Source: Polyangiales bacterium
Lineage (GTDB): Bacteria > Myxococcota_A > Polyangia > Polyangiales > Ga0077539
NCBI GenBank assembly: GCA_044229975.1
Contig: JBGARZ010000008.1
Coordinates: 128,001-192,000 of the forward strand
Length of the DNA: 64,000 bases
Reading direction: 5' to 3'
The notes beneath the pieces are model-generated. The model did not search any database, was not told the DNA's origin, and worked only from the letters and a program-made list of their open reading frames with translations. A program made the translations under genes and the position numbers. Each line of letters begins with the position of its first letter. The stretch's first letter is position 1. Shown piece by piece: positions 6,839 through 38,249 of the stretch.

Positions 6839-8692
6839 TCAGAAGTTCACGTCGCCCCACGCCTCGCCCGATCGCATCCACGGGACCTCCGCGTCTCCGC
6901 CGCCGAGCGAACCTGGAGCAGAGCGACCGCGATACACCACGATGCGGTCCGGGGACGGGGGCTGTCGTGAGCCGGCGATCACCACGACCAGGTCCGAGCG
7001 TCCGTCGCCGTCGACGTCCCCGTTGGCGTCGAAGGAGCGGTGCCCCCGCGTGATGACGACCGGAGCGGAGACGCCGCCCGTTCGAGGGTCGCCCCGGAGC
7101 AGCGAGAGGAGGTCCTCGTGCGCGGAGGAGAACCCGACGTAGCGGCTCTCGCTGAGCAGGAGGTCACCGACCCCGTCGCCGTCGAGGTCCGGCACGCAGC
7201 GCACGCTCATCGGTCGCAGCGTGACGTCGGGCGGCGCGTCGACGGTGACCGTCGAGACGGCCCACTGCAGGTCCGCGGTCAGGCGCAGGATGGCGACGCT
7301 CGTGGGGACGCGCCCGCGCTCGCCCGCGACGACGATCGGCGCCTCGGTGTCCGCCAGGACGACCTCGGAGCGCCCGTCCCCGTCGAGGTCGCAGCGCCCG
7401 CTGGCCATCGAGAACACGTCAAAGTTCGGAGGCTGCGGAGGCCGCGGCGCGACCACGCTCCGTGTCGCGAGCCCCGCGGTCGGACCGAGCGACACGGCGA
7501 GCCGATCGCCGCCGTTGACGTACCAGTTCGCGAACAGGAGGTCGGACGTGCCGTCGCCGTCGAAGTCGGCGGCCCGCTGCTCCCACGGAAACGCTGACGC
7601 TCGCACGCTCGCGCCGTTCCAGAGGCCGCGGGGAACGATCCGGGCGGGAGGGACGCCGTCGAAATCCCGTGGCCCACCGTGAAACACGCCGGCCTCTGGA
7701 AGGAACTCGTCGACGGTGTCTCCGACGACCACCGGGAGGGCGACGGAGACGCCCACGTCCGCGTAGCCGTCGCCGTTCTCGTCGCCGACCGCGCTGTAGC
7801 TGGTGGTGATAACCGCCCCGATGTCGGGGTCGAGGACGGCGCTCGTCGGCGTGGTGGCGAGACCAGTCGCCGACCCGCGGTACACGTACAGCCCCGTGAC
7901 CGGGTCGGACCCCGGAGCTTCCGGTGCGGCCGTGAACGCCCTCACGAGCAGCTCCGAGTACCCGTCGCCGTTCAGGTCCGCGGAGGTCGTTCCGAACGAC
8001 TGACGCAACCTCGGGTCGGGCAGCTCGATGGCGACGCCGCCCGCGGGACGCAACCCCTCCGCCCCACCGTAGAAGACGACCACCTGCGTCTGATGGGTGA
8101 CGGCGAGGTCCGCGAAGCCGTCCCCGTTGAAGTCGTTGAAGCGGCCGAACGCGGTGTCCGCAGGCGCGTCGTGCGCGAGCGTCCGAAATTCCCATGTGAA
8201 CGAGCTGCGCGCGCGGCCCTCCGCGTCGAGTGTGCTCGCCCGCCAGAAATGGACGCCCGCCGGGAGGGCGTTGTCGGGGCGATACGAGGTGCCCGTGACG
8301 GTCGCGTGCGACTCCGCGACGGCGCACGCGCGGTCCCGACAGACGTCGACCGTGACAGCCGACGACGCGGGGGACGCCCAGCGCAGGGTCGGACGCTGCG
8401 AGGAGACGATGCTGGTCGACAGCGGCGACAGCAGCCGCGGGGCGAGCGCATCGCCGGTGACGGGGTCGCCGCGGAGGACGGGCACCCACTCGGCCGACGT
8501 CCATGCGTGCGCGTCGGCGTCGCGCGCATCGACGCTGTCGCGGGCGGACGAGTCGCGGAGGACGCCGGCGTCCGTGCCGGAGGACGCACTGTTCGTCGCG
8601 GTGTTCGCACAGGCCGCGAGCATCATCGAGCACGACAGCGCCACATGGCCTCCCGCGCTCCTGCGTCCTCTCGGCAGCCCGCTGTCGCGCAT
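6839..8692 (-). CDS. FG-GAP/VCBS repeat lipoprotein
   Basis: Multiple D.NGDG..DL motifs; LAAC lipobox. Confidence 0.85.
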   Translation of the reverse strand: MRDSGLPRGRRSAGGHVALSCSMMLAACANTATNSASSGTDAGVLRDSSARDSVDARDADAHAWTSAEWVPVLRGDPVTGDALAPRLLSPLSTSIVSSQRPTLRWASPASSAVTVDVCRDRACAVAESHATVTGTSYRPDNALPAGVHFWRASTLDAEGRARSSFTWEFRTLAHDAPADTAFGRFNDFNGDGFADLAVTHQTQVVVFYGGAEGLRPAGGVAIELPDPRLRQSFGTTSADLNGDGYSELLVRAFTAAPEAPGSDPVTGLYVYRGSATGLATTPTSAVLDPDIGAVITTSYSAVGDENGDGYADVGVSVALPVVVGDTVDEFLPEAGVFHGGPRDFDGVPPARIVPRGLWNGASVRASAFPWEQRAADFDGDGTSDLLFANWYVNGGDRLAVSLGPTAGLATRSVVAPRPPQPPNFDVFSMASGRCDLDGDGRSEVVLADTEAPIVVAGERGRVPTSVAILRLTADLQWAVSTVTVDAPPDVTLRPMSVRCVPDLDGDGVGDLLLSESRYVGFSSAHEDLLSLLRGDPRTGGVSAPVVITRGHRSFDANGDVDGDGRSDLVVVIAGSRQPPSPDRIVVYRGRSAPGSLGGGDAEVPWMRSGEAWGDVNF

Positions 8693-8728
8693 GGAGAGAC
8701 GGTACCTCTGCTGGGGCAGTCGGCGCAG

Positions 8729-9172: not shown

Positions 9173-9751
9173 TCAACGCCGCAGCCAGGTCAGAGGGTAG
9201 GCCGCTGCCATCGCGCACGCGGCGAGCTCCGGCGCGACCGCGATCGGTCCGTAGTAGATGGCGAACACCACGTTGGTCGCGACCGTGAACTGGATCAACT
9301 GACGCCCGTTGAGCGTGATGAGGCCGTAGAGCATCAGCCTCGCATCCGGGAACTGGCGCGCCCACGCGATGACGAGCGCGTCTGCCACGGCCCACCCGCC
9401 GAGGTGCACCACGTCGCCTTGCCCCATGAGCAGGGCGAGCACGCTCGTCGCTCCGGTGGCCGCGAGCAGGACGTGGATCATGAACCGTCGCAAACGACGA
9501 TCGCCCCAGCGGATCGCGAGCTCGCTGCCGAACTTATAGATGGAGAGCACGGTGACGATGAGCCCCATCGGTCCGGGCTCGACGAAGGGCCACGTCACGA
9601 GCCGCCAGATCTCACCGTGCAGGACCAGCGATGGGATCAGCGCGGCCGCGTGGGCAATGTGACCGCCTTCGAGCGCAGCAACGATCGACACGACCAGCGT
9701 GACGACCATCCACCGCGTCACCAGCCTGCTTGATCCTAGCCGCGGCCACAT
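9173..9751 (-). CDS. Rhomboid-like membrane protein (probably catalytically inactive)
   Basis: GEIWRLVTWPF, FGSEL...WG; several TM segments; no GxSG motif. Confidence 0.75.
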   Translation of the reverse strand: MWPRLGSSRLVTRWMVVTLVVSIVAALEGGHIAHAAALIPSLVLHGEIWRLVTWPFVEPGPMGLIVTVLSIYKFGSELAIRWGDRRLRRFMIHVLLAATGATSVLALLMGQGDVVHLGGWAVADALVIAWARQFPDARLMLYGLITLNGRQLIQFTVATNVVFAIYYGPIAVAPELAACAMAAAYPLTWLRR

Positions 9752-9836
9752 GCGCGGAGACGCTACACCACGCGTGCACGGTCACCACAGCGCGTTGTCC
9801 GGCATGTAGCGGTCGCCATGGCGGCGACGACGGCCG

Positions 9837-10226
9837 CTACCAGACTCGGACGAGGCCCTCGTAGGCGTCGAGAGCCGGGTCGCGCGAGAGGAGCGGGACG
9901 TCCTCGACCAGCGCTTGCGCGATCAGGAGGCGATCGAATGGGTCGCGGTGATGGAGCGCGAGCGAAGCGACGGGCGCGAGGTGTCGCAGCTCGATCGACA
10001 GGACCGACACCTGGAGTCGCGCGAGTTGCTCTGCGATGAACTCATGCGGTGACGGTTCGAGGCGGAGCTTGCCTGTCCGATGCTTGATGCTCATCTCCCA
10101 CGCGCTGGCGACGCTCAAGAGACGTTCGTTGGCCGGGTCCAGGATCAAGGAACGCGCACGTTCGCCGAGCTGCGCCGGGTCTGAGGCGGCCCAAAGGAAC
10201 GTGTGGGTGTCGAGCAACAGGCGCAA
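9837..10226 (-). CDS. vapC: Type II TA system PIN-domain (VapC family) toxin
   Basis: LLLDTHTFLW, SVASAWEM.IK, HRDPFDRLLIAQA. Confidence 0.95.
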   Translation of the reverse strand: MRLLLDTHTFLWAASDPAQLGERARSLILDPANERLLSVASAWEMSIKHRTGKLRLEPSPHEFIAEQLARLQVSVLSIELRHLAPVASLALHHRDPFDRLLIAQALVEDVPLLSRDPALDAYEGLVRVW

Positions 10227-10233
10227 GCGATCC

Positions 10234-10446
10234 TCAGAGGTAAGCCTCGAACTCCTCGGGCGTGGCGTCGAAGTCTTCCGCCATGGTCACCCGTCCCTTC
10301 GCCGTGCCGAGCTGTGGCACCCGTCGCTCGTCCTCCGACGTTCCCCATAGTTCAAGGACCGCCCCTTCAGGAACATCGATCGGTAGTTCTGGGATCAGCA
10401 CCCTGCCGTCGAAACGCGCGCGGACGTGGATGGTGGGCTTCGACAT
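10234..10446 (-). CDS. Cognate antitoxin (70 aa)
   Basis: Immediately upstream of the PIN gene; ARFDGRVLIP..P...PEG N-terminus and G.AKG.V.MAEDFDA..EEF..Y tail. Confidence 0.85.
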   Translation of the reverse strand: MSKPTIHVRARFDGRVLIPELPIDVPEGAVLELWGTSEDERRVPQLGTAKGRVTMAEDFDATPEEFEAYL

Positions 10447-10530
10447 GACGGCAATCTACACCGCAACCCTCGCGCTCGCAGCGCCGAGCTCGTCGACGCG
10501 CAGCACGCCACCACCGCCTGTGAGCGACGC

Positions 10531-11256
10531 TTACCGGCGGTGGCGGCCGAGCGCCATGCACGCCTCCGTGACACCGCCCTCGCACGCCCGCTGGTATAGG
10601 TCGCGCGCGACACCGCGGCCCTCGTCGCACAGGGTCGCGAGCGCGGTGCACGAGTGCATGTCGCCACCATTGCATGCGAGCTCGTAGAGCTGCACCGCGC
10701 GCGCCTCGTCGCGCTCCACCTCGCGCCCTTGCAGGAAGCTGAAGGCGACCTCACCGCACGAGGGCATGATCCCTCCCTCACACGCCTGAGCGTGGAGGCG
10801 CGCGGCGCGTGCGAAGTCGCGCCCGACGCCGCGGCCGTGCTTGTAGAGCATGCCGAGCATCGAGCAGCTCCGCAGGTCGCCGTGGGCGCACGCCGGTTCG
10901 TAGAGCCGCGCGGCGCGGGGAACGTCCTGCTCGATCCCATCCCCGATGTCGTAGAGGACGCCGAGGCTCCCGCAGGCGGCGAAGTCTCCGCCGTCGCACG
11001 CGCGTTGGTACAGGAGAGCCGCCCGCGAGACGTCGCGCTCGACGCCAGTGCCCTGTCCGTAGGCGGCGCCTGCGCGGCCGCACGCCCGGACGTCGCCCCG
11101 CTCGCACGCCCGCTCACCGGTCGGGTCTGGCAACGCAACGACCGGAGGAGCCGCCGATGGAGCCGCCGGTGGAGCAACCGAGCGAGCGCCCGGGTGAGCG
11201 CACGCACCGAACGCGAAGACCGCCGCGACGATGCCGAACGCCCCCCGCCCCGTCAC
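10531..11256 (-). CDS. Sel1-like repeat lipoprotein
   Basis: Repeated AC..LG.LY..G.GV.RD..RAA.LY..AC.GG; GTG start overlaps the asnB stop (GTGA). Confidence 0.85.
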   Translation of the reverse strand: MTGRGAFGIVAAVFAFGACAHPGARSVAPPAAPSAAPPVVALPDPTGERACERGDVRACGRAGAAYGQGTGVERDVSRAALLYQRACDGGDFAACGSLGVLYDIGDGIEQDVPRAARLYEPACAHGDLRSCSMLGMLYKHGRGVGRDFARAARLHAQACEGGIMPSCGEVAFSFLQGREVERDEARAVQLYELACNGGDMHSCTALATLCDEGRGVARDLYQRACEGGVTEACMALGRHRR

Positions 11257-13277
11257 GCCACCCGATGCACCTCGGTGCGAAACGGCACCCCGTCGTCGCC
11301 ATCGTCGCGCTGCCCGATGAGCCGGTGGTGCAGCACCTGCGTCGAGAGCAACCCCACCACGGCCATGTTGTCGGCGTTGCTGAAGCCCGCGTCTCCCCCC
11401 TTCGCCGCCACCCGCCGGGCCTTCTCCAGCAGCGCCGTCGCGGCCGCCGCGTCGAACACCCCGACCTCCTTCAGCGCCGCCTCCGTCGTCAGCGCGCGCA
11501 CCCACTCGGGCGCATCGGGCCCCGTGAAGCACGCCGCGTCGGGCGCGCGGTAGGGCTGCTTCGGCCGCTCGAGAATCTCCTTCGGCAGCACCTCCGCCGC
11601 CGCGCGCTTGAGCACGTGCTTCTCGTCGAGGCCGCTGAGCTTGAAGCGCGCGGGCATCGCGTTGGCGTAGGCCATCACCTCCTTGTCGAGAAAGGGAAAG
11701 CGCCCCTCGACCGAGTTGGCCATCAGCATCCGATCACCCTGCGACGCCAGGATGTACGGGTTGAGCAGCGTGACCACCTCCAGGTACTGCGCCTGCGCGA
11801 GCGGGTCCCACCGCTTGAAGTCGTCGGGCAGCGAGGCCACCAGCGAGGCCACCGCGCCGGGCCGCGCGTCGCCCACCGTGCGCGCCTTCCACTCCGACGA
11901 GAACAGCCGCTGCAACGCCGACGCGCTCGACCACCGCGGGCCGTGCGAGAAGGTCGGGTCGTCGGGCCGCTCGATGCCCTTCGCCCAGAACTGCAATGCC
12001 AGCCCCCGCGCCGCCGCGGGCGAGCGCGCGAGCCACGGGTACAGCCGATCGAAGAGCCGCGGGCGCAGCTTCGACTGGGGCTGCCGCGACCAGAAGCGCC
12101 GCACCTTCGCCTCGCGGAAGAGGTCGTACCCGCCGAGCATCTCGTCGGACCCCTCGCCCGTCAGCACGACCTTCAGGCCCTGCTCGCGCACCAGCTTCGA
12201 CAGCAGGAAGAGCGGCGCCGGACCCGTCCGCAGCAGCGGTCGCTCGGCGTGCGCCACCACGTCGGGAAACACCCCCGCGATGTCCGACCGCGACGCCACC
12301 ACCTCGGCGTGCTCGCTGTGCAGCCGATCGACCATCAGCCGCTGGTACTTCGTCTCGTCGTACTCGGGGTCCTCGAAGCGCAGCGAGAACGTGTGGAACT
12401 TCCCGCGCACCGCATCGCGCGCCAGCCACGCGACGTAGCTGCTGTCGATGCCGCCCGACAGGTACGCGCCCACCGGCACGTCCGCCCGCAGCATCCGCAG
12501 CTCCGCCGCGTTGAGCAGCCGGTCGCGCAGGCCCTTCACCGCCTCGTCGAGCGTGCACGAGTCTTCATCGCGCGGACCGTCGCCCTGCACGCGCGGATAG
12601 CTCGGGTGCCAGTAGGTCTGGTCGACCTTCGCGCCCGAGCGGTCGTAGCGGCGCACCACGCCCGGCGGGAGCTCCTCGATGCCCGCAAACACCGACGTCG
12701 GCGCCCGCGAACCCCAGAACGTGAAGGTCTCCTCGATGCCTCGCGGGTCGAGCGCGCGCGACACGTCGGGGTCGGCGTAGAGCGCCTTCACCTCGCTGGC
12801 GAAGCGCACCCGACCGCCGCCCTCGTGCAGGAAGAGCGGGCGCACGCCCACGCGGTCGCGGCAGAGCACCAGCTCCTGGGTGCGCGTGTCCCACAGCGCG
12901 ATGGCCCACTGGCCGTTGAAGCGCGCGAAGGCGTCGACGCCCCAGCGCTCCCAGGCGTGGACGATCACCTCGGTGTCGGAGTGCGTCCGGAAGACGTGGC
13001 CCGCGGCTTCGAGCTCGACCCGCAGCTCGACGAAGTTGAACACCTCCCCGTTGAACACCAGCCACGACGTCTCATCGGTGTTGGGCATCGGCTGCTGGCC
13101 GCTCGCCAGGTCGACGATGGAGAGGCGCGCGTGGCCGAGGCCCGCCCTGCCGTCGCGGTAGACCCCGAACTCGTCGGGGCCGCGGTGGCGGATGGCCCGC
13201 ACCATCGCGCGAACGAGCTCGCGCGAGGGAGGCGGGAGCGCATCCGAGAGGTTCACGATTCCGGCGATGCCACACAT
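11253..13277 (-). CDS. asnB: Asparagine synthase (glutamine-hydrolysing) family amidotransferase
   Basis: MCGIAG, HRGPDE, RLSIVDL, FNGEVFN, LSGGIDSS, TGEGSDE, EGRFPFLD. Confidence 0.95.
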   Translation of the reverse strand: MCGIAGIVNLSDALPPPSRELVRAMVRAIRHRGPDEFGVYRDGRAGLGHARLSIVDLASGQQPMPNTDETSWLVFNGEVFNFVELRVELEAAGHVFRTHSDTEVIVHAWERWGVDAFARFNGQWAIALWDTRTQELVLCRDRVGVRPLFLHEGGGRVRFASEVKALYADPDVSRALDPRGIEETFTFWGSRAPTSVFAGIEELPPGVVRRYDRSGAKVDQTYWHPSYPRVQGDGPRDEDSCTLDEAVKGLRDRLLNAAELRMLRADVPVGAYLSGGIDSSYVAWLARDAVRGKFHTFSLRFEDPEYDETKYQRLMVDRLHSEHAEVVASRSDIAGVFPDVVAHAERPLLRTGPAPLFLLSKLVREQGLKVVLTGEGSDEMLGGYDLFREAKVRRFWSRQPQSKLRPRLFDRLYPWLARSPAAARGLALQFWAKGIERPDDPTFSHGPRWSSASALQRLFSSEWKARTVGDARPGAVASLVASLPDDFKRWDPLAQAQYLEVVTLLNPYILASQGDRMLMANSVEGRFPFLDKEVMAYANAMPARFKLSGLDEKHVLKRAAAEVLPKEILERPKQPYRAPDAACFTGPDAPEWVRALTTEAALKEVGVFDAAAATALLEKARRVAAKGGDAGFSNADNMAVVGLLSTQVLHHRLIGQRDDGDDGVPFRTEVHRVA

Positions 13278-13296
13278 GAGTCGGTGATGTTCCCTT

Positions 13297-14418
13297 CTAG
13301 CGGGCGGCCGCGTCGTGCAGCGCGCCCACCCAACCCTCGTGCATGCGCTGTTGCGTGAACCGCTCCAGCACCCGTCGTCGACCCGCCTCGCCCCGCCGCG
13401 CGCACCCTTCGGGGTCGCGCAACAGCGTCGCCATCGCGGCCCCCATCGCGGCGTGATCGCCCCGCGGGACGAGCTCTCCCGTCACACCCTTCGCCACGAT
13501 CTCGGGGTTGCCCCCGACCTCGGTGACCAGCGCCGCGCGCTCCGAGAGCATCGCCTCCAGCAGCGTCACGCTCGTGCCTTCGGAGAGCGACGCCATCGCG
13601 AAGAGGTCGCTCGCCGCGTAGATGGCCGGGATGTCCCGACGCACGCCCGCGAACACCACCCGCTCACCCACACCGAGCTCACCCGCGAGCGCCTTCAAGG
13701 GCTCGGCCTCGCCGCCGCCGACCAGCAACAACCGCGCGTCGGGGAGCTCCCGCGCGGCGTGGGCGAAGGCGCGAACGAGCGTGGGGTGATCCTTCACCGG
13801 GTGGAAGCGCGCGACGCAGGTGACGACCTTCGCGGTGGGCGCGAGGCCGAGCGACGCGCGGATGCCAGCGGGGTCGAGCTGCGCGCGCTGGGCCGGGTCG
13901 AAGCGCGACGGGTCGACGCCGTTGTAGACGACGTCGATGCGCGAGGCGGGGATGCCCTCGTTTTCGACGAGCAGGCGCTTGATGTACCCGCACACCGCGA
14001 CGACGCGGCTCGTGTAGTGGAGGAAGAGCGCGTTGTTGGCCAGAACGCGCTTGGGTCGGCGCTCGTCGGGGTAGTGCCGACCGTGCTCGACGAAGACCAG
14101 GCCCGGTCGGTGGCGCATCGGCCCCATGGCCATGGCCGCGTACGAGTACGGCGTGTACTGGTGGGCGCACACGACGTCGGGGCGCACCTCCGCGATGAGC
14201 CGATGGAGGCCGAGCGCGATGCCCGGTTGCAGCCCCTCGCGGCGGCCGAGCACCTCGACGCGAACACCGTCCGCCCGCAGCGACTCGCCGAGCGGACCGA
14301 TGCCGTCGAGGCACACCACCACCTGGGTGAGTCGGTCGCGGGTGGCCTTGAGGAAGTCGTGCACGAGCACCTCGGCGCCGCCGAAGGTCATGCTGTGGAG
14401 GACGTGCAGGACGCGCAT
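13297..14418 (-). CDS. GT4 family glycosyltransferase
   Basis: GGAE N-terminal motif; ARF.P.KDH; SLSEGTSVTLLEAM; VGGNPE. Confidence 0.92.
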   Translation of the reverse strand: MRVLHVLHSMTFGGAEVLVHDFLKATRDRLTQVVVCLDGIGPLGESLRADGVRVEVLGRREGLQPGIALGLHRLIAEVRPDVVCAHQYTPYSYAAMAMGPMRHRPGLVFVEHGRHYPDERRPKRVLANNALFLHYTSRVVAVCGYIKRLLVENEGIPASRIDVVYNGVDPSRFDPAQRAQLDPAGIRASLGLAPTAKVVTCVARFHPVKDHPTLVRAFAHAARELPDARLLLVGGGEAEPLKALAGELGVGERVVFAGVRRDIPAIYAASDLFAMASLSEGTSVTLLEAMLSERAALVTEVGGNPEIVAKGVTGELVPRGDHAAMGAAMATLLRDPEGCARRGEAGRRRVLERFTQQRMHEGWVGALHDAAAR

Positions 14419-18539: not shown

Positions 18540-20477
18540 ATGGCAACGCACCCTGGACCGCCCGCTGATGTTCCGTCCGTCCTGAAGCAGCTCCACCGCC
18601 CGAAGCGCGCGGTCGTCACGGCGGGGATGCCCTACGCCAACGGCCCGCTGCACCTCGGTCACCTCGCGGGCGCGCACCTCCCGCCGGACATCTACGCCCG
18701 CTGGCTGGGCATGCTCATCGGCCGCGACAACGTCCTCTTCGTGTGCGGCACCGACGAGCACGGCTCCACCAGCGAGCTCGCCGCGCTCAACGCGGGTGTG
18801 CCCATCCGGGAGTTCATCGACGGCATCCACGACCGGCAGAAGCGCACCCTGGAGCGCTACTCCATCAGCCTCGACACCTTCAGCGGAACCTCCCGCCCCG
18901 ACACCTTCCCCATCCACCAGGAGGTCTGTCAGGACTTCCTCCGTCGGCTCCACGCCAACGGGCTGCTGGAGAAGCGCGCGAGCCGCCAGTGGTTCGACCC
19001 GAAGGTGCAGCGCTTCCTGCCCGATCGCTTCGTGCGCGGGCGGTGCCCCAACCCGAAGTGCGACAACCTCGAAGCGTTCAGTGACGAGTGCGACCGCTGC
19101 GGCGCGCAGTACGAGCCGACGGCCCTCATCGACCCGCGCAGCAGTGTGAGCGACGCCACGCCCGAGATGCGCGACACGACCCATTGGTTTCTCGACATGT
19201 GGTCGGTGTCCGAGACGCTGCGCGAGTGGCTGCAGGCGAAGCAGAAGACCTGGCGGGCTTCGATGCTGGCTGACGTGCTCGACCGGGTGATGCCGTCGCT
19301 GCGCTTCGCGGGTGACCGCGAGAAGGACTACGTCGCGATCAAGGCGACGCTGCCGAAGCACAAGAGCAAGTACGCGCAGGGCAAGCAGGTGGTGTTGCAG
19401 TTCGGCAACAAGGTCGACCTCGACACCGGGCGCACGATGCTGAAGGAGCTCGGCATCGAGACGGCGCTGGTGTCCGAGTGGGCGCACCGGTCGATCACGC
19501 GCGACATCGCGTGGGGCGTTCCGCTGCCCGAGCTCGACGCCGACTTCGACGTCACGGGGAAGACGCTCTACGTGTGGCCCGACTCGCTCATCGCGCCGAT
19601 CTCGTTCACGCAGGTGGCGCTGAAGGAGCGGGGCGAAGACCCGTCGCGCGTCGACGAGTTCTGGCGCGACCCGGAGTCGCGGATCGTCCAGTTTCTCGGG
19701 CAGGACAACGTGTTCTTCTACGTGCTGATGCAGGGCGCGATGTGGCTCGGCACGCAGGCCGACCCGCACCGTCAGCCGCGCGTGGGCGAGCTCCAGATGA
19801 CCGACATCTTCGGCTGCTTCCACCTGCTGGTGAACGGCGAGAAGATGAGCAAGACGCGCGGCAACTTCTACTCGGGCGACCAGCTCCTCGACGAGAAGGG
19901 CTACACGGCCGACCAGCTCCGCTACTACCTCGCGCTGCTCGGGCTCCCGGAGAAGTCGTCGGACTTCGACTTCAACAAGCTCGACGAACGCAATCGCTTC
20001 CTCGCGGGCCCCATGAACGCCGCCTTCGAGAAGCCCATCTCCGCGGCGCACGCGCGCTTCGGGGGTGTGGTTCCCGATGGGGTGCTGCTCGACAAGGTGG
20101 CGGCCGACACGCTGCGCATCGTGCAGCGCTACGTGCGCTCGATGGACAAGGCCGACTACCCCACGCTGCTCTACGAGATCGAGAACTACGCGCGCACCAT
20201 CAACAGCTTGTTCACGCAGCACAAGCCGCACGACGACCGGCACCCCGAGGAGGCGCGGCGCAACGCGCTCTACTCGTGCTTCTACGTGCTCAAGACGCTG
20301 ATGATCATGCTGTACCCCTTCGTGCCCGACACGATGGACCGGCTGCGCGAGTCGCTGCGGCTGCCGAAGACGGTGTTCAACGTCGACGAGCTGGGTACGC
20401 CCATCGCCGCGGGCCACGAGCTCGGAGCGAAGGACGTGTACTTCCCCGCGGTGGCCGAAGCGCCCGCCGCGACGTAG
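18540..20477 (+). CDS. Methionyl-tRNA synthetase-like paralogue (two-knuckle type, no C-terminal tRNA-binding domain, divergent specificity residues)
   Basis: PYANGPLHLGH, CGTDEHG, CPNPKC...CDRCG, KMSKT, anticodon-binding helical bundle. Confidence 0.9.
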   Translation: MATHPGPPADVPSVLKQLHRPKRAVVTAGMPYANGPLHLGHLAGAHLPPDIYARWLGMLIGRDNVLFVCGTDEHGSTSELAALNAGVPIREFIDGIHDRQKRTLERYSISLDTFSGTSRPDTFPIHQEVCQDFLRRLHANGLLEKRASRQWFDPKVQRFLPDRFVRGRCPNPKCDNLEAFSDECDRCGAQYEPTALIDPRSSVSDATPEMRDTTHWFLDMWSVSETLREWLQAKQKTWRASMLADVLDRVMPSLRFAGDREKDYVAIKATLPKHKSKYAQGKQVVLQFGNKVDLDTGRTMLKELGIETALVSEWAHRSITRDIAWGVPLPELDADFDVTGKTLYVWPDSLIAPISFTQVALKERGEDPSRVDEFWRDPESRIVQFLGQDNVFFYVLMQGAMWLGTQADPHRQPRVGELQMTDIFGCFHLLVNGEKMSKTRGNFYSGDQLLDEKGYTADQLRYYLALLGLPEKSSDFDFNKLDERNRFLAGPMNAAFEKPISAAHARFGGVVPDGVLLDKVAADTLRIVQRYVRSMDKADYPTLLYEIENYARTINSLFTQHKPHDDRHPEEARRNALYSCFYVLKTLMIMLYPFVPDTMDRLRESLRLPKTVFNVDELGTPIAAGHELGAKDVYFPAVAEAPAAT

Positions 20478-28363: not shown

Positions 28364-30406
28364 ATGACCAAGCGCTTCTACGTCACGACGCCCATCTACT
28401 ACGTCAACGGGTCGCCCCACATCGGGCACGCGTACACGACCATCGTGGCCGACTCGCTCACGCGCTACCACCGGCTGCGCGGCGAGCGGTCGCGCTTCCT
28501 CACCGGCACCGACGAGCACGGGCAGAAGATCGAGCGCGAGGCCGCCAAGGCCGGCGTCGACCCGCGGGCCTTCGTCGACGACGTGAGCGGGCGCTTCCGC
28601 GAGCTGTGGCCGCAGCTCTCGGTGGAGCCCGACGACTTCATCCGCACCACCGAGCAGCGTCACGTCGAGAGGGTGCAGGCGTGGTGGCGCAAATGCCGCG
28701 ACGCGGGCGACCTCTACAAGGGCCATTACAAGGGCCCGTACTGCTACGGCTGCGAAGGCTACAAGACCGAGAAGGAACTCCTCCCCGGCAACCTCTGCCC
28801 CATCCACGAGCGCCCCGTGGAGATCCTCGAGACGGAGACCTGGTTCTTCCGCCTCACGAAGTACCAGGACCGGCTGCTCAAGCTCTACGAGGAGCACCCG
28901 GAGTTCGTGCTGCCCGAGACGCGGCGCAACGAGATCGTTTCGTTCGTCAGCTCGGGGCTCGAAGACCTCTCGCTGTCGCGCTCCAACTTCACCTGGGGCA
29001 TCCCCGTCCCTGACGACCCCGGGCACGTCATCTACGTCTGGTTCGACGCGCTCTTCAACTACCTGAGCGCGGTCGATACGCCTGAGTTGCGGGCGTTCTG
29101 GCCGGCGCAGGTGCAGCTCGTCGCCAAGGACATCGTGCGCTTCCATACGGTGTACTGGCCGGCCTTCCTGATGAGCGTGGGCGAGCCGTTGCCCACGACA
29201 GTGTGGGTTCACGGGTACCTGCTCTCGGGCGGTCGCAAGACCTCCAAGACCCCGGGGATGACCGCCGTGAAGACGCCGGGGACGACCGACCCGCGACGCA
29301 TCACCGCCGTGCTCGGCGCCGATGTGTTGCGCTTCTACCTCTTGCGCGAGGTGGGCTTCGGCCAGGACGGGGAGTTCTCCATCCCGGGCATCATCACCCG
29401 CGCTCGCGCCGAGCTCGGCGAGACCGTCGGCAACCTGCTCCATCGCGCGCTTCCCTTCGTGACGAAGTACTTCGAGGGGAAGGTTCCGGCGGTGGACGAG
29501 GCGCAGCTCACGGAGCTCGATCGGACGCTCCGCGCGAAGGTCACGGGCCTCGTCGCGGAGGTGGGTGCGGCGTGGGACGAGCTCGCCTTCCACCGGGCGT
29601 TGGAGCTCACCATCGAGACCGCGCGCGCGGCCAACAAGTACTTCGACGAGACCGCGCCGTGGAAGCTCGCCAAGGCGGGTGAGACCGCGCGCCTCGCGAC
29701 GGTGATCGCGCATGTGCTGGAGGTGGTTCGCACCACGGCGGTGCTGCTCTCGCCGGTGACGCCGACGAAGAGCCGCGAGCTGCTCGACCAGTTGGGCCTC
29801 GATGCGTTGACCGCACGCGAAGACGTCGACCAGTGGCCCACCACCTGGGGCGGCCTCGCGGCCGGAACGACCGTACGCCCCGGCCAACCCGTGTTTCCGA
29901 AGTACGACACCGCGACCGAAGCGGCCATGCTGGAGAGCCTCGACGTGCGCGAGGCAGAACCGACCCCGAAGAACGCGACCAAGACCATGAACACCGACGA
30001 GAAGACCACCGCCCCCGCGACCGATACTCCCGCCACTGCTCCCGCGGTTGCTGTTGCTGAGGAAGCTCCCGCGACCATCCAGTACGACGACTTCGCGAAG
30101 GTCGACCTCCGCGTCGGCAAGGTGCTCACCGCCGAGCGCATCCCGCGCAAGGACAAGCTCCTCAAGCTCTCCGTCGACCTCGGCGAGACCGCTGGGCCGC
30201 GCACCATCATCGCGGGCATCGCGCTGTCCTTCCCGGAGCCGACGGTGCTCGTGGGCAAGCAGGTGGTGGTCGTCGCCAACCTCGCGCCGCGCGACTTCGG
30301 CAAGGGCCTCGTGTCACACGGGATGCTCCTCGCCGCGGGCTCGTCGGAGGCGCTCTCGCTCGCCACCTTCGCCGACGATCGCCCCGCTGGCACCCGGGTG
30401 AAGTGA
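28364..30406 (+). CDS. metG: Methionine--tRNA ligase (canonical, with C-terminal tRNA-binding domain)
   Basis: TTPIYYVN..PHIGH, YVWFDALFNY, KDIVRFH, GNLLHR, APWKLAK, DFAKVDLRVG. Confidence 0.95.
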   Translation: MTKRFYVTTPIYYVNGSPHIGHAYTTIVADSLTRYHRLRGERSRFLTGTDEHGQKIEREAAKAGVDPRAFVDDVSGRFRELWPQLSVEPDDFIRTTEQRHVERVQAWWRKCRDAGDLYKGHYKGPYCYGCEGYKTEKELLPGNLCPIHERPVEILETETWFFRLTKYQDRLLKLYEEHPEFVLPETRRNEIVSFVSSGLEDLSLSRSNFTWGIPVPDDPGHVIYVWFDALFNYLSAVDTPELRAFWPAQVQLVAKDIVRFHTVYWPAFLMSVGEPLPTTVWVHGYLLSGGRKTSKTPGMTAVKTPGTTDPRRITAVLGADVLRFYLLREVGFGQDGEFSIPGIITRARAELGETVGNLLHRALPFVTKYFEGKVPAVDEAQLTELDRTLRAKVTGLVAEVGAAWDELAFHRALELTIETARAANKYFDETAPWKLAKAGETARLATVIAHVLEVVRTTAVLLSPVTPTKSRELLDQLGLDALTAREDVDQWPTTWGGLAAGTTVRPGQPVFPKYDTATEAAMLESLDVREAEPTPKNATKTMNTDEKTTAPATDTPATAPAVAVAEEAPATIQYDDFAKVDLRVGKVLTAERIPRKDKLLKLSVDLGETAGPRTIIAGIALSFPEPTVLVGKQVVVVANLAPRDFGKGLVSHGMLLAAGSSEALSLATFADDRPAGTRVK

Positions 30407-36168: not shown

Positions 36169-36394
36169 CGGAGAGACCGTGACCTAGCGGAGAACGCCCG
36201 AGGCGACCAATTTGCCGAACGGTCAGCAGGCGAGCAGCTCGCCGAGGCCCGGCACCGGTCAGGCCCGCAGTCACCGGGGGCCACGCCGCAGCGTCAGCAA
36301 GGCGCGCAACGGTCAGGCTCGCAGCCACCGGGCCTCCCGACCGCGAGCGCGCGGCTTTGCGCCAGACCGTCGTCCCGGCCTACACCGGAGCGCG

Positions 36395-36940
36395 ATGGAT
36401 GCCCCCGACGCCCTCGCCTGCAACTTCGTCGACCCCCAGCTCTCGTCGCGGCTCGGCGACGCCCCGCTGCTCGACGCGGCGGCCCTCGACCGCGCCGTCG
36501 CAGTGCCGTGGACCGAGGGACTCCACGCCGCCATCGAGCGCTGGTCCGCGTTCGCCCGCGTCGGCGCGCCTGCGTACGACTTCTACCGTGACACCCTCCC
36601 GAAGGTCCGCGCGTGGGCGCTCGAACAGCACCCGCAGCCGCCGTTGACGCTCCTGCGGCGGGGCGAGCCGTGGAGCCTCGCGCTCTCACCGCGGCACGCG
36701 CGGCACCTCCTCGCCTGCGCCTTCTTCCTCGGCACCCTCGACACGAACACGGCGGGCGGTCTCTCGCTCGCGGGGCTCTACGAATTGGAGGAGTCCTCCG
36801 CGGTCGAGCGCATCGTCTGCCTGCTCGCCTACCTCCACACCGCCGACGCGGCCGACGATGTGCCGAGCCGATCGTTCCAGGGGAAGCCCTGCGCCTCGGC
36901 GAGCTCGCGGGAGACGCCCGTGTGGATCGCGTCGATGTAG
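36395..36940 (+). pseudogene. Truncated poly(ADP-ribose) glycohydrolase-like gene (helical domain only; homology ends near 36865)
   Basis: FYRDTLP.V...AL...QPPL.LL...SL.LS....LLACAFF...ERI.CLLAY resembles the canonical PARG pre-catalytic region; no GGG..QEE macrodomain follows. Confidence 0.65.
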
Positions 36941-37079: not shown

Positions 37080-38156
37080 TCAGCCGCGCAGCGCAGCGTC
37101 GACCAGCGAGACGCAGAGCGCGTCGAGCGCCTTCCGGTCGGGCGCGTGCGGCAGCGGTGATGCCTTCGCGAGCGCGTCGAGCGCGGCGTCTTCGGCCGCA
37201 ACGAACTCCCGCAGGCGGTCGAAGCTCCACGCGCCCTCGCGGATGGAGAGCAGCTCGTCGCGGTCGGGCCGCCCCACCCGCACCTCGCCCGTGGTGAGAA
37301 TCTCGCGGCACATCCGCAGGAGCCGAACGATGTGCGCGCCGAACTTGGTGTCGTAGCCGAAGCGAGACTCCAGCTCGGCGCGACGCGGGTTGCGCGCCTT
37401 CTTCCACGCCGCGTACTGCTCCCAGTCGCGCTGCCTCGCGCGGAGTTCGCGCTCGCGCAGCATCAGCCCCGCGAGGTCGTCGCCGAGGCCGAGGTGCCGG
37501 GCCGCCGCGCGCCAGGCTGGATCGTCCGCCGCGACCCGCTCGCCCAACGCGGAGGTGATGCGTTCGCGAAGGTCGTCCTGCGCGTCGCGCGGGAGCGGCG
37601 ACAGGTCGACGTCCCAGGTCTTGAGCAGGCGCTCCATCTCGGCGTGCACCGCCGCGAGCCGCGTCTGCTCCTGCTCGGTGAGGGCGTCGAGGCCGAAGTC
37701 CTCGCGCCGCGGCGGACTCACGGGCGGCGCGCTCGCCCACGCGTGGTGGCGCTCCAGGCGCTTGAGCTGCGCCATCGCGAAGCCCGAGAAGGTGTGCCGC
37801 GCCTTGCGCGAGAGGAAGAGGTCGCGCGCCGCGAGAAGCCTCTCACCAACGGGCGTGACGCCAAGGTGATCGGCGGGGTCGGTGAACAGCACCTCGATGA
37901 TGCTCGGGTTGCAGTCCGCCGCGAGCGTCATGAACTTCCGCAGCTCGTAGACGACGAGGTCGGGGTCGCTGCACTCGGCCTGCTCGAAGCGGCTCGCGAA
38001 GCCCAGGTAGTACTCGCGCGGCGCGATCGCGACGCCCTTCACGTCAAGGTCGCTGGCCGGCGTCGCGAGCCCATAGGCGTGCGAGCCGTGACGGGTGAGG
38101 AAGATGGTTCGCTCGGGCAGCCACGTCAGGTTGCCCCTGTACCCCGGTATCTCCAT
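37080..38156 (-). CDS. DNA polymerase beta-superfamily nucleotidyltransferase (RlaP/YcgL-like)
   Basis: GSHAYGLAT..SDLDVKG, NPSIIEVL, GYDTK...H.VRLL, LL.IR.G. Confidence 0.88.
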   Translation of the reverse strand: MEIPGYRGNLTWLPERTIFLTRHGSHAYGLATPASDLDVKGVAIAPREYYLGFASRFEQAECSDPDLVVYELRKFMTLAADCNPSIIEVLFTDPADHLGVTPVGERLLAARDLFLSRKARHTFSGFAMAQLKRLERHHAWASAPPVSPPRREDFGLDALTEQEQTRLAAVHAEMERLLKTWDVDLSPLPRDAQDDLRERITSALGERVAADDPAWRAAARHLGLGDDLAGLMLRERELRARQRDWEQYAAWKKARNPRRAELESRFGYDTKFGAHIVRLLRMCREILTTGEVRVGRPDRDELLSIREGAWSFDRLREFVAAEDAALDALAKASPLPHAPDRKALDALCVSLVDAALRG

Positions 38157-38249
38157 GGTGCGCAGTCTGATCGCGAGACGCGCAGGCCGCTACCCCTCTT
38201 CGGCGCGGGTGAGGTCCACCGTGCGCCCGATGTACCACCTCGCTCATCC

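Follow-up and report, generated by a model that had tools for sequence, protein, structure and literature searches.

A MetRS-derived paralogue with a rebuilt amino-acid pocket and anticodon site, encoded beside a housekeeping MetRS in a Polyangiales bacterium

The stretch of DNA analysed here, referred to as the window, covers 64,000 nucleotides of a Polyangiales bacterium (GenBank assembly GCA_044229975.1, contig JBGARZ010000008.1, positions 128,001 to 192,000 of the forward strand). Its G+C content is 71%, and the source genome comprises 10.0 Mb in 39 contigs and is 93% complete. Two genes derived from methionyl-tRNA synthetase (MetRS) lie in the window, only 8 kb apart. One is a canonical metG. 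The other, the subject of this report, encodes a MetRS-derived paralogue which, judged by sequence comparison, is a member of an undescribed family, designated group A. The features of the two genes are given below, with replaced positions numbered as in Escherichia coli MetRS.

18540..20477, plus strand: coding sequence of the MetRS-derived paralogue (group A), with ATG at 18540, 645 amino acids, and the stop codon ending at 20477
18624..18662, plus strand: GMPYANGPLHLGH, the pocket entrance (A12G, L13M) together with HLGH (from MAFFT and the residue table)
18624-18635, plus strand: GMPY motif, coordinates checked
18651-18662, plus strand: HLGH, the HIGH motif, coordinates checked
19044..19100, plus strand: Zn knuckle CPNPKC-x9-CDRC (Cys169, 174, 184, and 187, all four invariant in the alignment of 14 members)
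19236..19481, plus strand: family-specific insertion, residues 233-314 (a gap in E. coli and canonical MetRS)
19494..19505, plus strand: ITRD, the equivalent of E. coli R233-D234 (residue table)
19575..19598, plus strand: WPDSLIAP, the rebuilt wall of the amino-acid pocket (W253 kept; L254P, A256S, P257L, G259A, Y260P)
19698..19736, plus strand: GQDNVFFYVLMQG, the rebuilt pocket floor (K295Q, H301Y, W305Q, P306G; D296 kept)
19842..19856, plus strand: KMSKT, the KMSKS motif with both lysines kept (residue table)
20016..20033, plus strand: NAAFEK, the helix bearing the E. coli N391 and R395 positions (N391A, R395K)
20223..20240, plus strand: KPHDDR, the loop bearing the E. coli W461 position (W461H, followed by two Asp)
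28364..30406, plus strand: canonical metG of the Gram-positive or MetRS1 type, with a C-terminal tRNA_bind domain (from NF008900, Pfam, neighbours, and kept residues)

The alignment register was set by HMMER against the MetRS chains of the PDB and by MAFFT with E. coli K-12 MetG. When all PDB chains are searched by HMMER, the MetRS of P. abyssi is the top match (4.7e-75), followed by E. coli MetRS (about 1e-57). MAFFT pairs the E. coli segments CALPY, WLDAPIGY, and GKDIVYFH..FWP with AGMPY, WPDSLIAP, and GQDNVFFY..MQG, and the segments KMSKS, NLASR, and APW with KMSKT, AAFEK, and KPH. A preliminary description of this DNA had read the replacements A12G, L13M, A256S, P257L, Y260P, H301Y, N391A, R395K, and W461H by eye, and both HMMER and MAFFT reproduce this register. 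Proper alignment did not restore the canonical residues, and the replacements stand in HMMER, in MAFFT, and in a residue table of the family. The list is extended by L254P, G259A, K295Q, W305Q, and P306G. It is shortened by I297N, which is not distinctive, as Asn is the usual residue at that position (22 of 27 canonical representatives). The pairing of N391A and R395K is taken from MAFFT and from the HMMER match to P. abyssi MetRS, the match to E. coli being loose there, and an invariant Asn lies one residue upstream of the N391 column in group A. The same description held that HLGH, KMSKT, the Zn knuckle, and the helical domain are intact, and this agrees with the motif coordinates, the alignments, and a structural model. 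In E. coli MetRS, we take L13, Y260, H301, and W305 to form the Met pocket and N391, R395, and W461 to read C34 and the anticodon. R233 and K335 presumably serve catalysis or the tRNA-dependent step, and the same roles are assumed here for their equivalents in the paralogue.

The residue table compares 18 representatives of group A with 27 canonical representatives of the E. coli/archaeal/eukaryotic type of MetRS (named MetRS2 in the drug-target literature) and with 5 representatives of a sister clade, group B. In the canonical enzymes, A256, G259, Y260, K295, H301, P306, N391, and R395 are fixed in 27/27, A12, L13, and W461 are present in 26/27, and position 305 is F or W in all 27, so that conservation of the Met-pocket residues ranges from 24 to 27 of 27. 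All 18 representatives of group A carry A12 to G, L13 to M, A256 to S, G259 to A, Y260 to P, H301 to Y, N391 to A, and W461 to H. The remaining positions are nearly as uniform, with Q (15), I (2), or V (1) at K295, G (16), N (1), or S (1) at P306, and K (13) or R (5) at R395. In the paralogue itself, the Met-pocket residues L13, A256, P257, Y260, H301, and W305 have become M, S, L, P, Y, and Q. The KPHDDR loop is invariant (18/18), whereas the Trp of canonical MetRS (26/27) is mostly followed by K and then T. Alongside these replacements, the parts of a working class I enzyme are retained. The HLGH motif, the equivalent of the alpha-amino-binding Asp D52, the Y15, W253, and D296 equivalents, and both KMSKS lysines are invariant in group A. 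KMSK[ST/A] is retained in 18/18, with K435 and K438 of the paralogue fixed in 18/18, and the R233 equivalent is Arg in 18/18 group A and 27/27 canonical representatives.

Group B shares with group A the insertion and the pocket residues G, M, S, L, A, P, and Y at A12, L13, A256, P257, G259, Y260, and H301, the first two being fixed in 18/18 of group A and 5/5 of group B. It differs from group A in having Gly at R233 (5/5), Ser at K335 in a KASSS-type motif (5/5), and variable residues at the anticodon site.

Taken as a whole, the paralogue resembles canonical MetRS2 (1rqg, 1f4l, 1qqt) in domain order, fold, HIGH, KMSKS, and the Zn knuckle, and keeps the equivalents of D52, Y15, W253, D296, R233, and N452. 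It differs from canonical MetRS in the replaced L13, A256, P257, G259, Y260, K295, H301, W305, P306, N391, R395, and W461, in an insertion of about 80 residues with a predicted ferredoxin-like arrangement, in the lack of a C-terminal tRNA_bind domain, and in its occurrence beside a real MetRS. Pfam tRNA-synt_1g matches it in two stretches, and it falls below both NCBIfam MetRS cut-offs (NF001100, 367.6 against 587; TIGR00398, 291.5 against 336.35). In comparison, the canonical metG exceeds its NCBIfam equivalog cut-off (NF008900, 740.8 bits against 598) and stands in the housekeeping gene order holB-PSP1-metG-HEAT-tatD. MAFFT alignment with E. coli K-12 MetG indicates that it retains Y260, H301, W305, N391, R395, and W461, in line with the preliminary description, which had named all of these but W305. 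It is thus well supported, on sequence grounds, that the paralogue is not an ordinary MetRS, because its residue changes are a fixed trait of a family under strong constraint.

The extent of this family was followed in several collections. A search of 5.8 billion proteins returns a twin of 645 amino acids that is 100% identical to the query, and the other 119 matches listed are all 70-94% identical. Named organisms among the matches listed are Labilithrix luteola, Sorangium sp. So ce128, Polyangiales metagenome-assembled genomes (MAGs), and a Bdellovibrionales MAG. When 14 members from Myxococcota and Bdellovibrionota are aligned, the columns are on average 76% identical, and none of the changed motifs varies. 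Representatives at 50% identity, searched exhaustively with HMMER, fall into two layers, both of which match over one unbroken stretch and hence share the insertion. The representatives of group A are 42-61% identical to the paralogue and retain KMSKS and KPHDDR, while those of group B are 26-30% identical by MAFFT and 660-675 amino acids long, as in WP_303161905.1 from Ruminococcus champanellensis. Database names of members are methionine--tRNA ligase in many cases, or class I tRNA ligase family protein (WP_303161905.1). The window's own phylum also holds a 673-residue open reading frame (ORF) that resembles group B (L016, G172:C13:28883-30712), with a single-stretch match of 31% identity over residues 21-614. 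The full-text literature searched yielded no description of the family, nor did term look-ups in two reviews (PMC9437257, PMC5388404), the former of which does not mention MetRS under the terms used.

In a maximum-likelihood tree of 54 rows, groups A and B form one clade (SH-aLRT 100) among the MetRS2-type enzymes, and the stem leading to it is 1.24 substitutions per site long. Group A itself has short branches, with Bdellovibrionota rows basal and Myxococcota rows nested inside (98). With a family profile, group A is detected in 38 of 151 sampled genomes of Bdellovibrionota, the phylum of a Bacteriovorax locus, and in 4 of 151 sampled genomes of the class of the Polyangia locus; with the single protein as query, an orthologue is found in 2 of 201 genomes sampled from the window's phylum, its own genome included. 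Exact look-ups add cultured carriers, namely Bdellovibrio bacteriovorus (WP_063206980.1) and other Bdellovibrio strains, Bacteriovorax stolpii (WP_102243018.1), and Pseudobdellovibrio exovorus JSS (WP_015469892.1). B. bacteriovorus 109J apparently lacks the paralogue: the 'tRNA ligase' entries in supplementary file 5 of a transposon sequencing study comprise 22 tRNA-ligase genes, of which one is metG and none a second MetRS-like gene (PMC6561027). Another MetRS gene is present in 44/44 carriers (the source genome, 5/5, and 38/38), so that an orthologue was in no case the only MetRS of its genome. The co-resident MetRS can be of either type, and one Bdellovibrionota genome, G241, has three MetRS-family genes, the paralogue together with a MetRS2-type and a MetRS1-type gene.

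The best named relatives of both MetRS genes in the window belong to Myxococcota/Polyangiales. The canonical metG is 51-60% identical to named proteins of Polyangiales/Myxococcales type, and the paralogue is 70-77% identical to those of Myxococcota/Polyangiales type. Between the same pair of genomes, that of the window and the Bacteriovorax MAG of locus L013, identity is 61% for the paralogues and 36% for the canonical MetRSs. The third-position G+C of the paralogue (0.93) is similar to that of adjoining genes, which argues by composition against a recent foreign arrival. In two metatranscriptome libraries, most of the gene is covered by pieces of contigs with about 90% similarity, a weak hint that relatives of the paralogue are transcribed. 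A search of sequencing runs returned no run with half or more of the words of the stretch.

An AlphaFold2 model built from a 50-row alignment (predicted local distance difference test, pLDDT, 93.9; predicted template modelling score, pTM, 0.92) indicates that the whole MetRS fold and domain order are kept. Foldseek places MetRS chains first, with TMq 0.78 for P. abyssi (1rqg) and 0.72 for E. coli, and the MetRS-derived domain PyrN-C at rank 17 (TMq 0.67). The insertion of about 80 residues (233-314) replaces a much shorter stretch of E. coli MetRS. It is predicted to form beta-alpha-beta-beta-alpha-beta, a generic ferredoxin-like arrangement, with pLDDT above 90 in the whole model and 76 when folded alone. 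It is the least conserved internal part of the protein, with 15% invariant columns and 38-52% identity between loci. It has no Pfam match at E up to 10 and no Foldseek match in the PDB at E <= 0.001, the best being the MetNI C2 domain at 0.02, and its best VIA-align Z of 8.3-8.9 is the level stated as typical for unrelated models. Its PDB matches, to ACT, RRM, and acyltransferase subdomains, are at background level.

The helix bundle, by comparison, is conserved like the catalytic core of group A, with 43% invariant columns against 40-42% in the Rossmann halves. Its most conserved face reads ENYAR..IN..LF...KPHDDR.PE..R. At matched divergence, the catalytic parts are equally conserved in groups A and B, with 33 and 31% invariant columns in one part and 28 and 25% in the other, whereas the bundle has 29% invariant columns in group A and 4% in group B.

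On this basis, we propose with about even confidence that the paralogue would be an accessory tRNA-charging enzyme with a specificity for neither Met nor the CAU anticodon, acting beside the housekeeping MetRS. In this proposal, an intact class I enzyme of synthetase type, derived from the E. coli/archaeal type of MetRS, would activate a non-methionine amino acid and then pass it to the 3' end of a tRNA different from tRNA-Met(CAU), held by the rebuilt anticodon site. Amino-acid activation is the expected chemistry because the ATP-binding and alpha-amino-binding parts are intact and invariant. The pocket keeps hydrophobic walls (M, L, W, Y, and P) but has lost the residues that hold the Met sulfur, and it has Tyr in place of His301, presumably the position at which ValRS and IleRS carry Trp. 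As the pocket is largely hydrophobic and has this Tyr, a different and probably shorter side chain than that of Met is expected. The string DNVFFYV that contains the Tyr resembles DIIFFWV in the ValRS of the source genome, a lead that likewise points to a shorter side chain. Transfer to the 3' end of a specific tRNA would follow from the kept R233 equivalent, the two kept KMSKS lysines, and a bundle conserved like the core. A changed anticodon preference is suggested by the contrast between the two groups, the most informative result with regard to the acceptor, since group A keeps a constrained bundle site and the residues of the tRNA step. More specifically, group A may be one half of a natural synthetase-tRNA pair of MetRS descent, in which an amino acid other than Met, probably short and hydrophobic, is loaded onto a tRNA recognised by a rebuilt pocket for position 34, a tentative suggestion that we regard as possible rather than probable. 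A candidate tRNA is the AUA-decoding tRNA-Ile2 (lysidine-A-U or U-A-U), because its anticodon differs from that of Met at position 34 only, though another isoacceptor is also possible. Of the four roles raised in the preliminary description, which sequence data can only rank, a new amino acid and a new tRNA are favoured by the kept KMSKS, R233, and bundle. Action outside translation, for which the MetRS-like domain of hydrazine synthetase sets a precedent, may also apply, while resistance to a MetRS inhibitor is disfavoured, because a resistant copy must keep the readers of Met and CAU and no biosynthetic cluster lies nearby.

Several points weigh against tRNA charging. The KPHDDR loop is acidic in place of the mostly basic or neutral residues of canonical MetRS, an unusual feature for an RNA-binding face, and no dedicated or unusual tRNA accompanies the paralogue in the window, in 6 of its loci, or in other carriers. 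The proposal is drawn from sequence and a predicted structure, with residue roles taken from the literature on E. coli MetRS. Horizontal transfer, and not a slow rate, may explain part of the high identity across phyla, because Myxococcota rows nest within Bdellovibrionota rows in the tree. Lastly, a kept bundle is no proof of tRNA use, because the MetRS-like domain of a hydrazine synthetase keeps its alpha-helix bundle without using tRNA (bioRxiv 10.1101/2025.08.22.671884).

Among the alternatives, a tRNA-independent amino-acid ligase, which would form an aminoacyl-adenylate and hand its amino acid to a small-molecule or protein acceptor as PyrN-C does with N6-hydroxylysine, is unlikely but has a precedent in a MetRS-like enzyme that has a re-tooled pocket and has kept HLGH and the bundle (bioRxiv 10.1101/2025.08.22.671884). 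PyrN-C (9L8V, 9VQ4; the O-aminoacyl-hydroxylamine synthetase domain) is a detectable relative of the paralogue, both by sequence (9l8v, E 4e-18) and by its Foldseek rank. It is likewise MetRS-derived, re-tooled at the L13 region, the W253-Y260 wall, and H301, and has kept HLGH and the helix bundle. The insertion of the paralogue could form an acceptor site, and group B has lost the equivalents of R233 and K335, its KASSS recalling the KFSTG of PyrN. However, PyrN-C has KFSTG for KMSKS, a cupin domain, and an N-hydroxylase encoded alongside, and does not use tRNA, whereas group A retains KMSK[ST] (KMSKT in the paralogue) and R233, and its bundle is constrained like the core, unlike that of group B. 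No cupin, N-hydroxylase, or biosynthetic neighbour occurs in the window or in 25 other group A loci, true MetRS is a far closer match to the family (E 1e-57 to 5e-75) than PyrN-C is, and its conservation is unusually high for secondary metabolism. Alternatively, the enzyme could modify tRNA in the manner of GluQRS, placing an amino acid on a modified base rather than on the 3' end. GluQRS (YadB) is a paralogue of GluRS that glutamylates queuosine in tRNA-Asp and thereby acts non-canonically on tRNA. Like the present protein, it is a synthetase paralogue found beside the real synthetase. GluQRS is not known to have an anticodon-binding domain, a lack that presumably lets the anticodon loop reach the catalytic site. 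The rebuilding of the position-34 readers into a charged His-Asp-Asp-Arg loop would suit such a role, as would the tRNA-related setting of the group B gene, which has GluRS and mnmA neighbours. Nevertheless, GluQRS is presumably a truncated catalytic domain, while the paralogue is full length and keeps a strongly conserved bundle in the MetRS arrangement. In addition, the group B synteny comes from closely related contigs in which GluRS is probably the housekeeping copy, and group A has no such neighbours, which together make this reading quite improbable.

It is also very unlikely that the paralogue is a second true MetRS that makes Met-tRNA-Met through other contacts, for example as a stress-specialised or inhibitor-resistant isoform. 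The MetRS2 of S. pneumoniae is reportedly such a resistant copy. Duplicated, resistant MetRS copies exist in other bacteria, as stated in a review (PMC5388404), many members of the present family are annotated as methionine--tRNA ligase, and one Bacteriovorax locus lies next to an msrBA fusion and near leuS-metG. Yet the residues kept for Met and CAU in 26-27 of 27 canonical enzymes are all replaced, both NCBIfam cut-offs are failed, and the paralogue is never the sole MetRS (44/44). An inhibitor-resistant second synthetase keeps its substrate residues and often lies near a biosynthetic cluster, and neither holds for the paralogue; the msrBA adjacency is seen in 1 of 26 loci. Finally, a non-catalytic, regulatory pseudo-synthetase that binds a ligand or a partner could account for the weak resemblance of the insertion to ACT-type sensors (TyrA ACT, Z 8.3-8.5) and for the histidine-kinase-like family near the gene in 10 of 26 loci. 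We consider this highly improbable, as the invariance of HLGH, the KMSKS lysines, and the D52, D296, Y15, and W253 equivalents is not expected without catalysis, and the matches of the insertion fold are at background level.

The tRNA and synthetase complement was also surveyed. No dedicated tRNA gene adjoins the paralogue, there being no tRNA genes within the window or in 6 loci of the paralogue. The scan for unusual tRNAs proposed in the preliminary description did reveal oddities in the source genome, namely a tRNA-Ile(UAU) and divergent arrays, but none of these travels with the paralogue in other carriers. The tRNA-Ile with anticodon UAU lies at C20:281741-281814 (acceptor pairs C4:G69 and C5:G68). 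The genome has only two CAU tRNAs and no TilS above the TIGR02432 cut-off (best 55.8 against 93.6, in a genome 93% complete), and in this lineage a UAU tRNA for AUA may have taken the place of the lysidine system. As a partner of the paralogue, tRNA-Ile(UAU) was rejected: the closest tRNA in 4 other carriers is CAU, no UAU copy was seen in the 5 carriers searched, and TilS scores above its cut-off in all 5.

Arrays of tRNA genes that are 58-77% identical to another copy with the same anticodon occur in the source genome at C19:132218-132612, C2:20891-21238, C16:42171-42698, C32:448987-449441, C33:350442-350706, and C19:323800-324205. The divergent arrays include three tRNAs with Leu anticodons, 73-76 nt long and without a long variable arm. 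This short-arm Leu array was rejected as a family-wide partner, since it was not found in 5 other carriers apart from one partial match of 37 bases. In this G+C-rich genome, some further long ARAGORN calls seem to be false positives. The absence of GlnRS is a common bacterial pattern. Among the 5 carriers compared for the AsnRS and GlnRS families, AsnRS is present in 5/5 and GlnRS is above the cut-off in 1/5, a distribution with no pattern that would have the paralogue replace a missing synthetase. The source genome also has two ValRS-like class Ia ORFs, one of 1018 amino acids with PPPNVTG and GFDIIFFWV (C38:55523-58576) and one of 892 amino acids with PPPTVSG and KMSKS (C38:600571-603246). 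The pocket-floor string of the paralogue, GQDNVFFYVLMQG, resembles the ValRS motif GFDIIFFWV.

Synthetase paralogues with new roles are already known as a kind, to which group A adds a widespread new variant. New synthetase specificities are both rare and of value: they show how the adaptor layer of the genetic code evolves and supply orthogonal pairs for code expansion. The positions changed in group A are exactly those targeted in the engineering of E. coli MetRS, and the anticodon readers are changed in addition. It is a large, strongly constrained natural family found in cultured predators (Bdellovibrio, Bacteriovorax, and Pseudobdellovibrio) and in myxobacteria (Labilithrix and Sorangium). 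Should it form an extra synthetase pair, a quarter of Bdellovibrionota and some Myxococcota would run a parallel charging route that alters or backs up decoding; should it be independent of tRNA, it would add to the MetRS-like ligases a new branch that lies outside the biosynthetic clusters known so far. The split between the two groups may be viewed as a natural experiment on a synthetase leaving or staying in translation, with a shared pocket and with tRNA-linked features kept in group A and lost in group B. As carriers can be grown and engineered, the question of the substrate is directly testable.

With regard to gene neighbourhoods, the paralogue of the window stands alone, with a divergent hybrid kinase gene upstream and a convergent gene for a 325-residue protein without a Pfam match downstream. 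Its surroundings are myxobacterial in style (a Ser/Thr kinase, an FHA-sigma54 activator, and a hybrid histidine kinase). Across the whole window, no Rfam match attains the gathering score of its family, and hence no riboswitch or T-box leader was detected upstream. No conserved operon was found for group A: no neighbour is shared across the 26 loci compared, the only recurring one being the histidine-kinase-like family in 10 of these, at varying positions. No biosynthetic cluster lies near the paralogue in the window, and neither a cupin nor an N-hydroxylase was found by Pfam in the flanking ORFs of 5 loci (the window, L013, L009, L011, and L015). The paralogue itself has no cupin domain by Pfam. 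By context, group A is not part of secondary metabolism. In the Bacteriovorax MAG (L013:4946-5959, 9597-13703), a divergent msrB-msrA fusion flanks the paralogue, leuS follows about 1.7 kb downstream, and the canonical metG stands directly after leuS.

The loci of group B were drawn from gut and rumen metagenome contigs (L043-L122) that are closely related, with proteins 65-78% identical. The group B gene stands directly behind a GluRS gene on the same strand in 14 loci with otherwise different neighbours. A GluRS gene lies within 3 genes in 22/80 loci, and the group B gene precedes mnmA in 21/80, all in one subclade. The neighbouring GluRS scores 281 bits against a cut-off of 289.95 and is probably the housekeeping copy. 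GluRS and mnmA neighbours were not seen in the 26 loci of group A.

Elsewhere in the window, a gene at 6842-8728 on the minus strand encodes a 629-residue protein with FG-GAP repeats and a weak match to TcdB_toxin_midN. In addition, a PARG-like gene (poly-ADP-ribose glycohydrolase helical domain) at 36188-36937 on the plus strand adjoins a gene for an RlaP-family nucleotidyltransferase at 37083-38189 on the minus strand.

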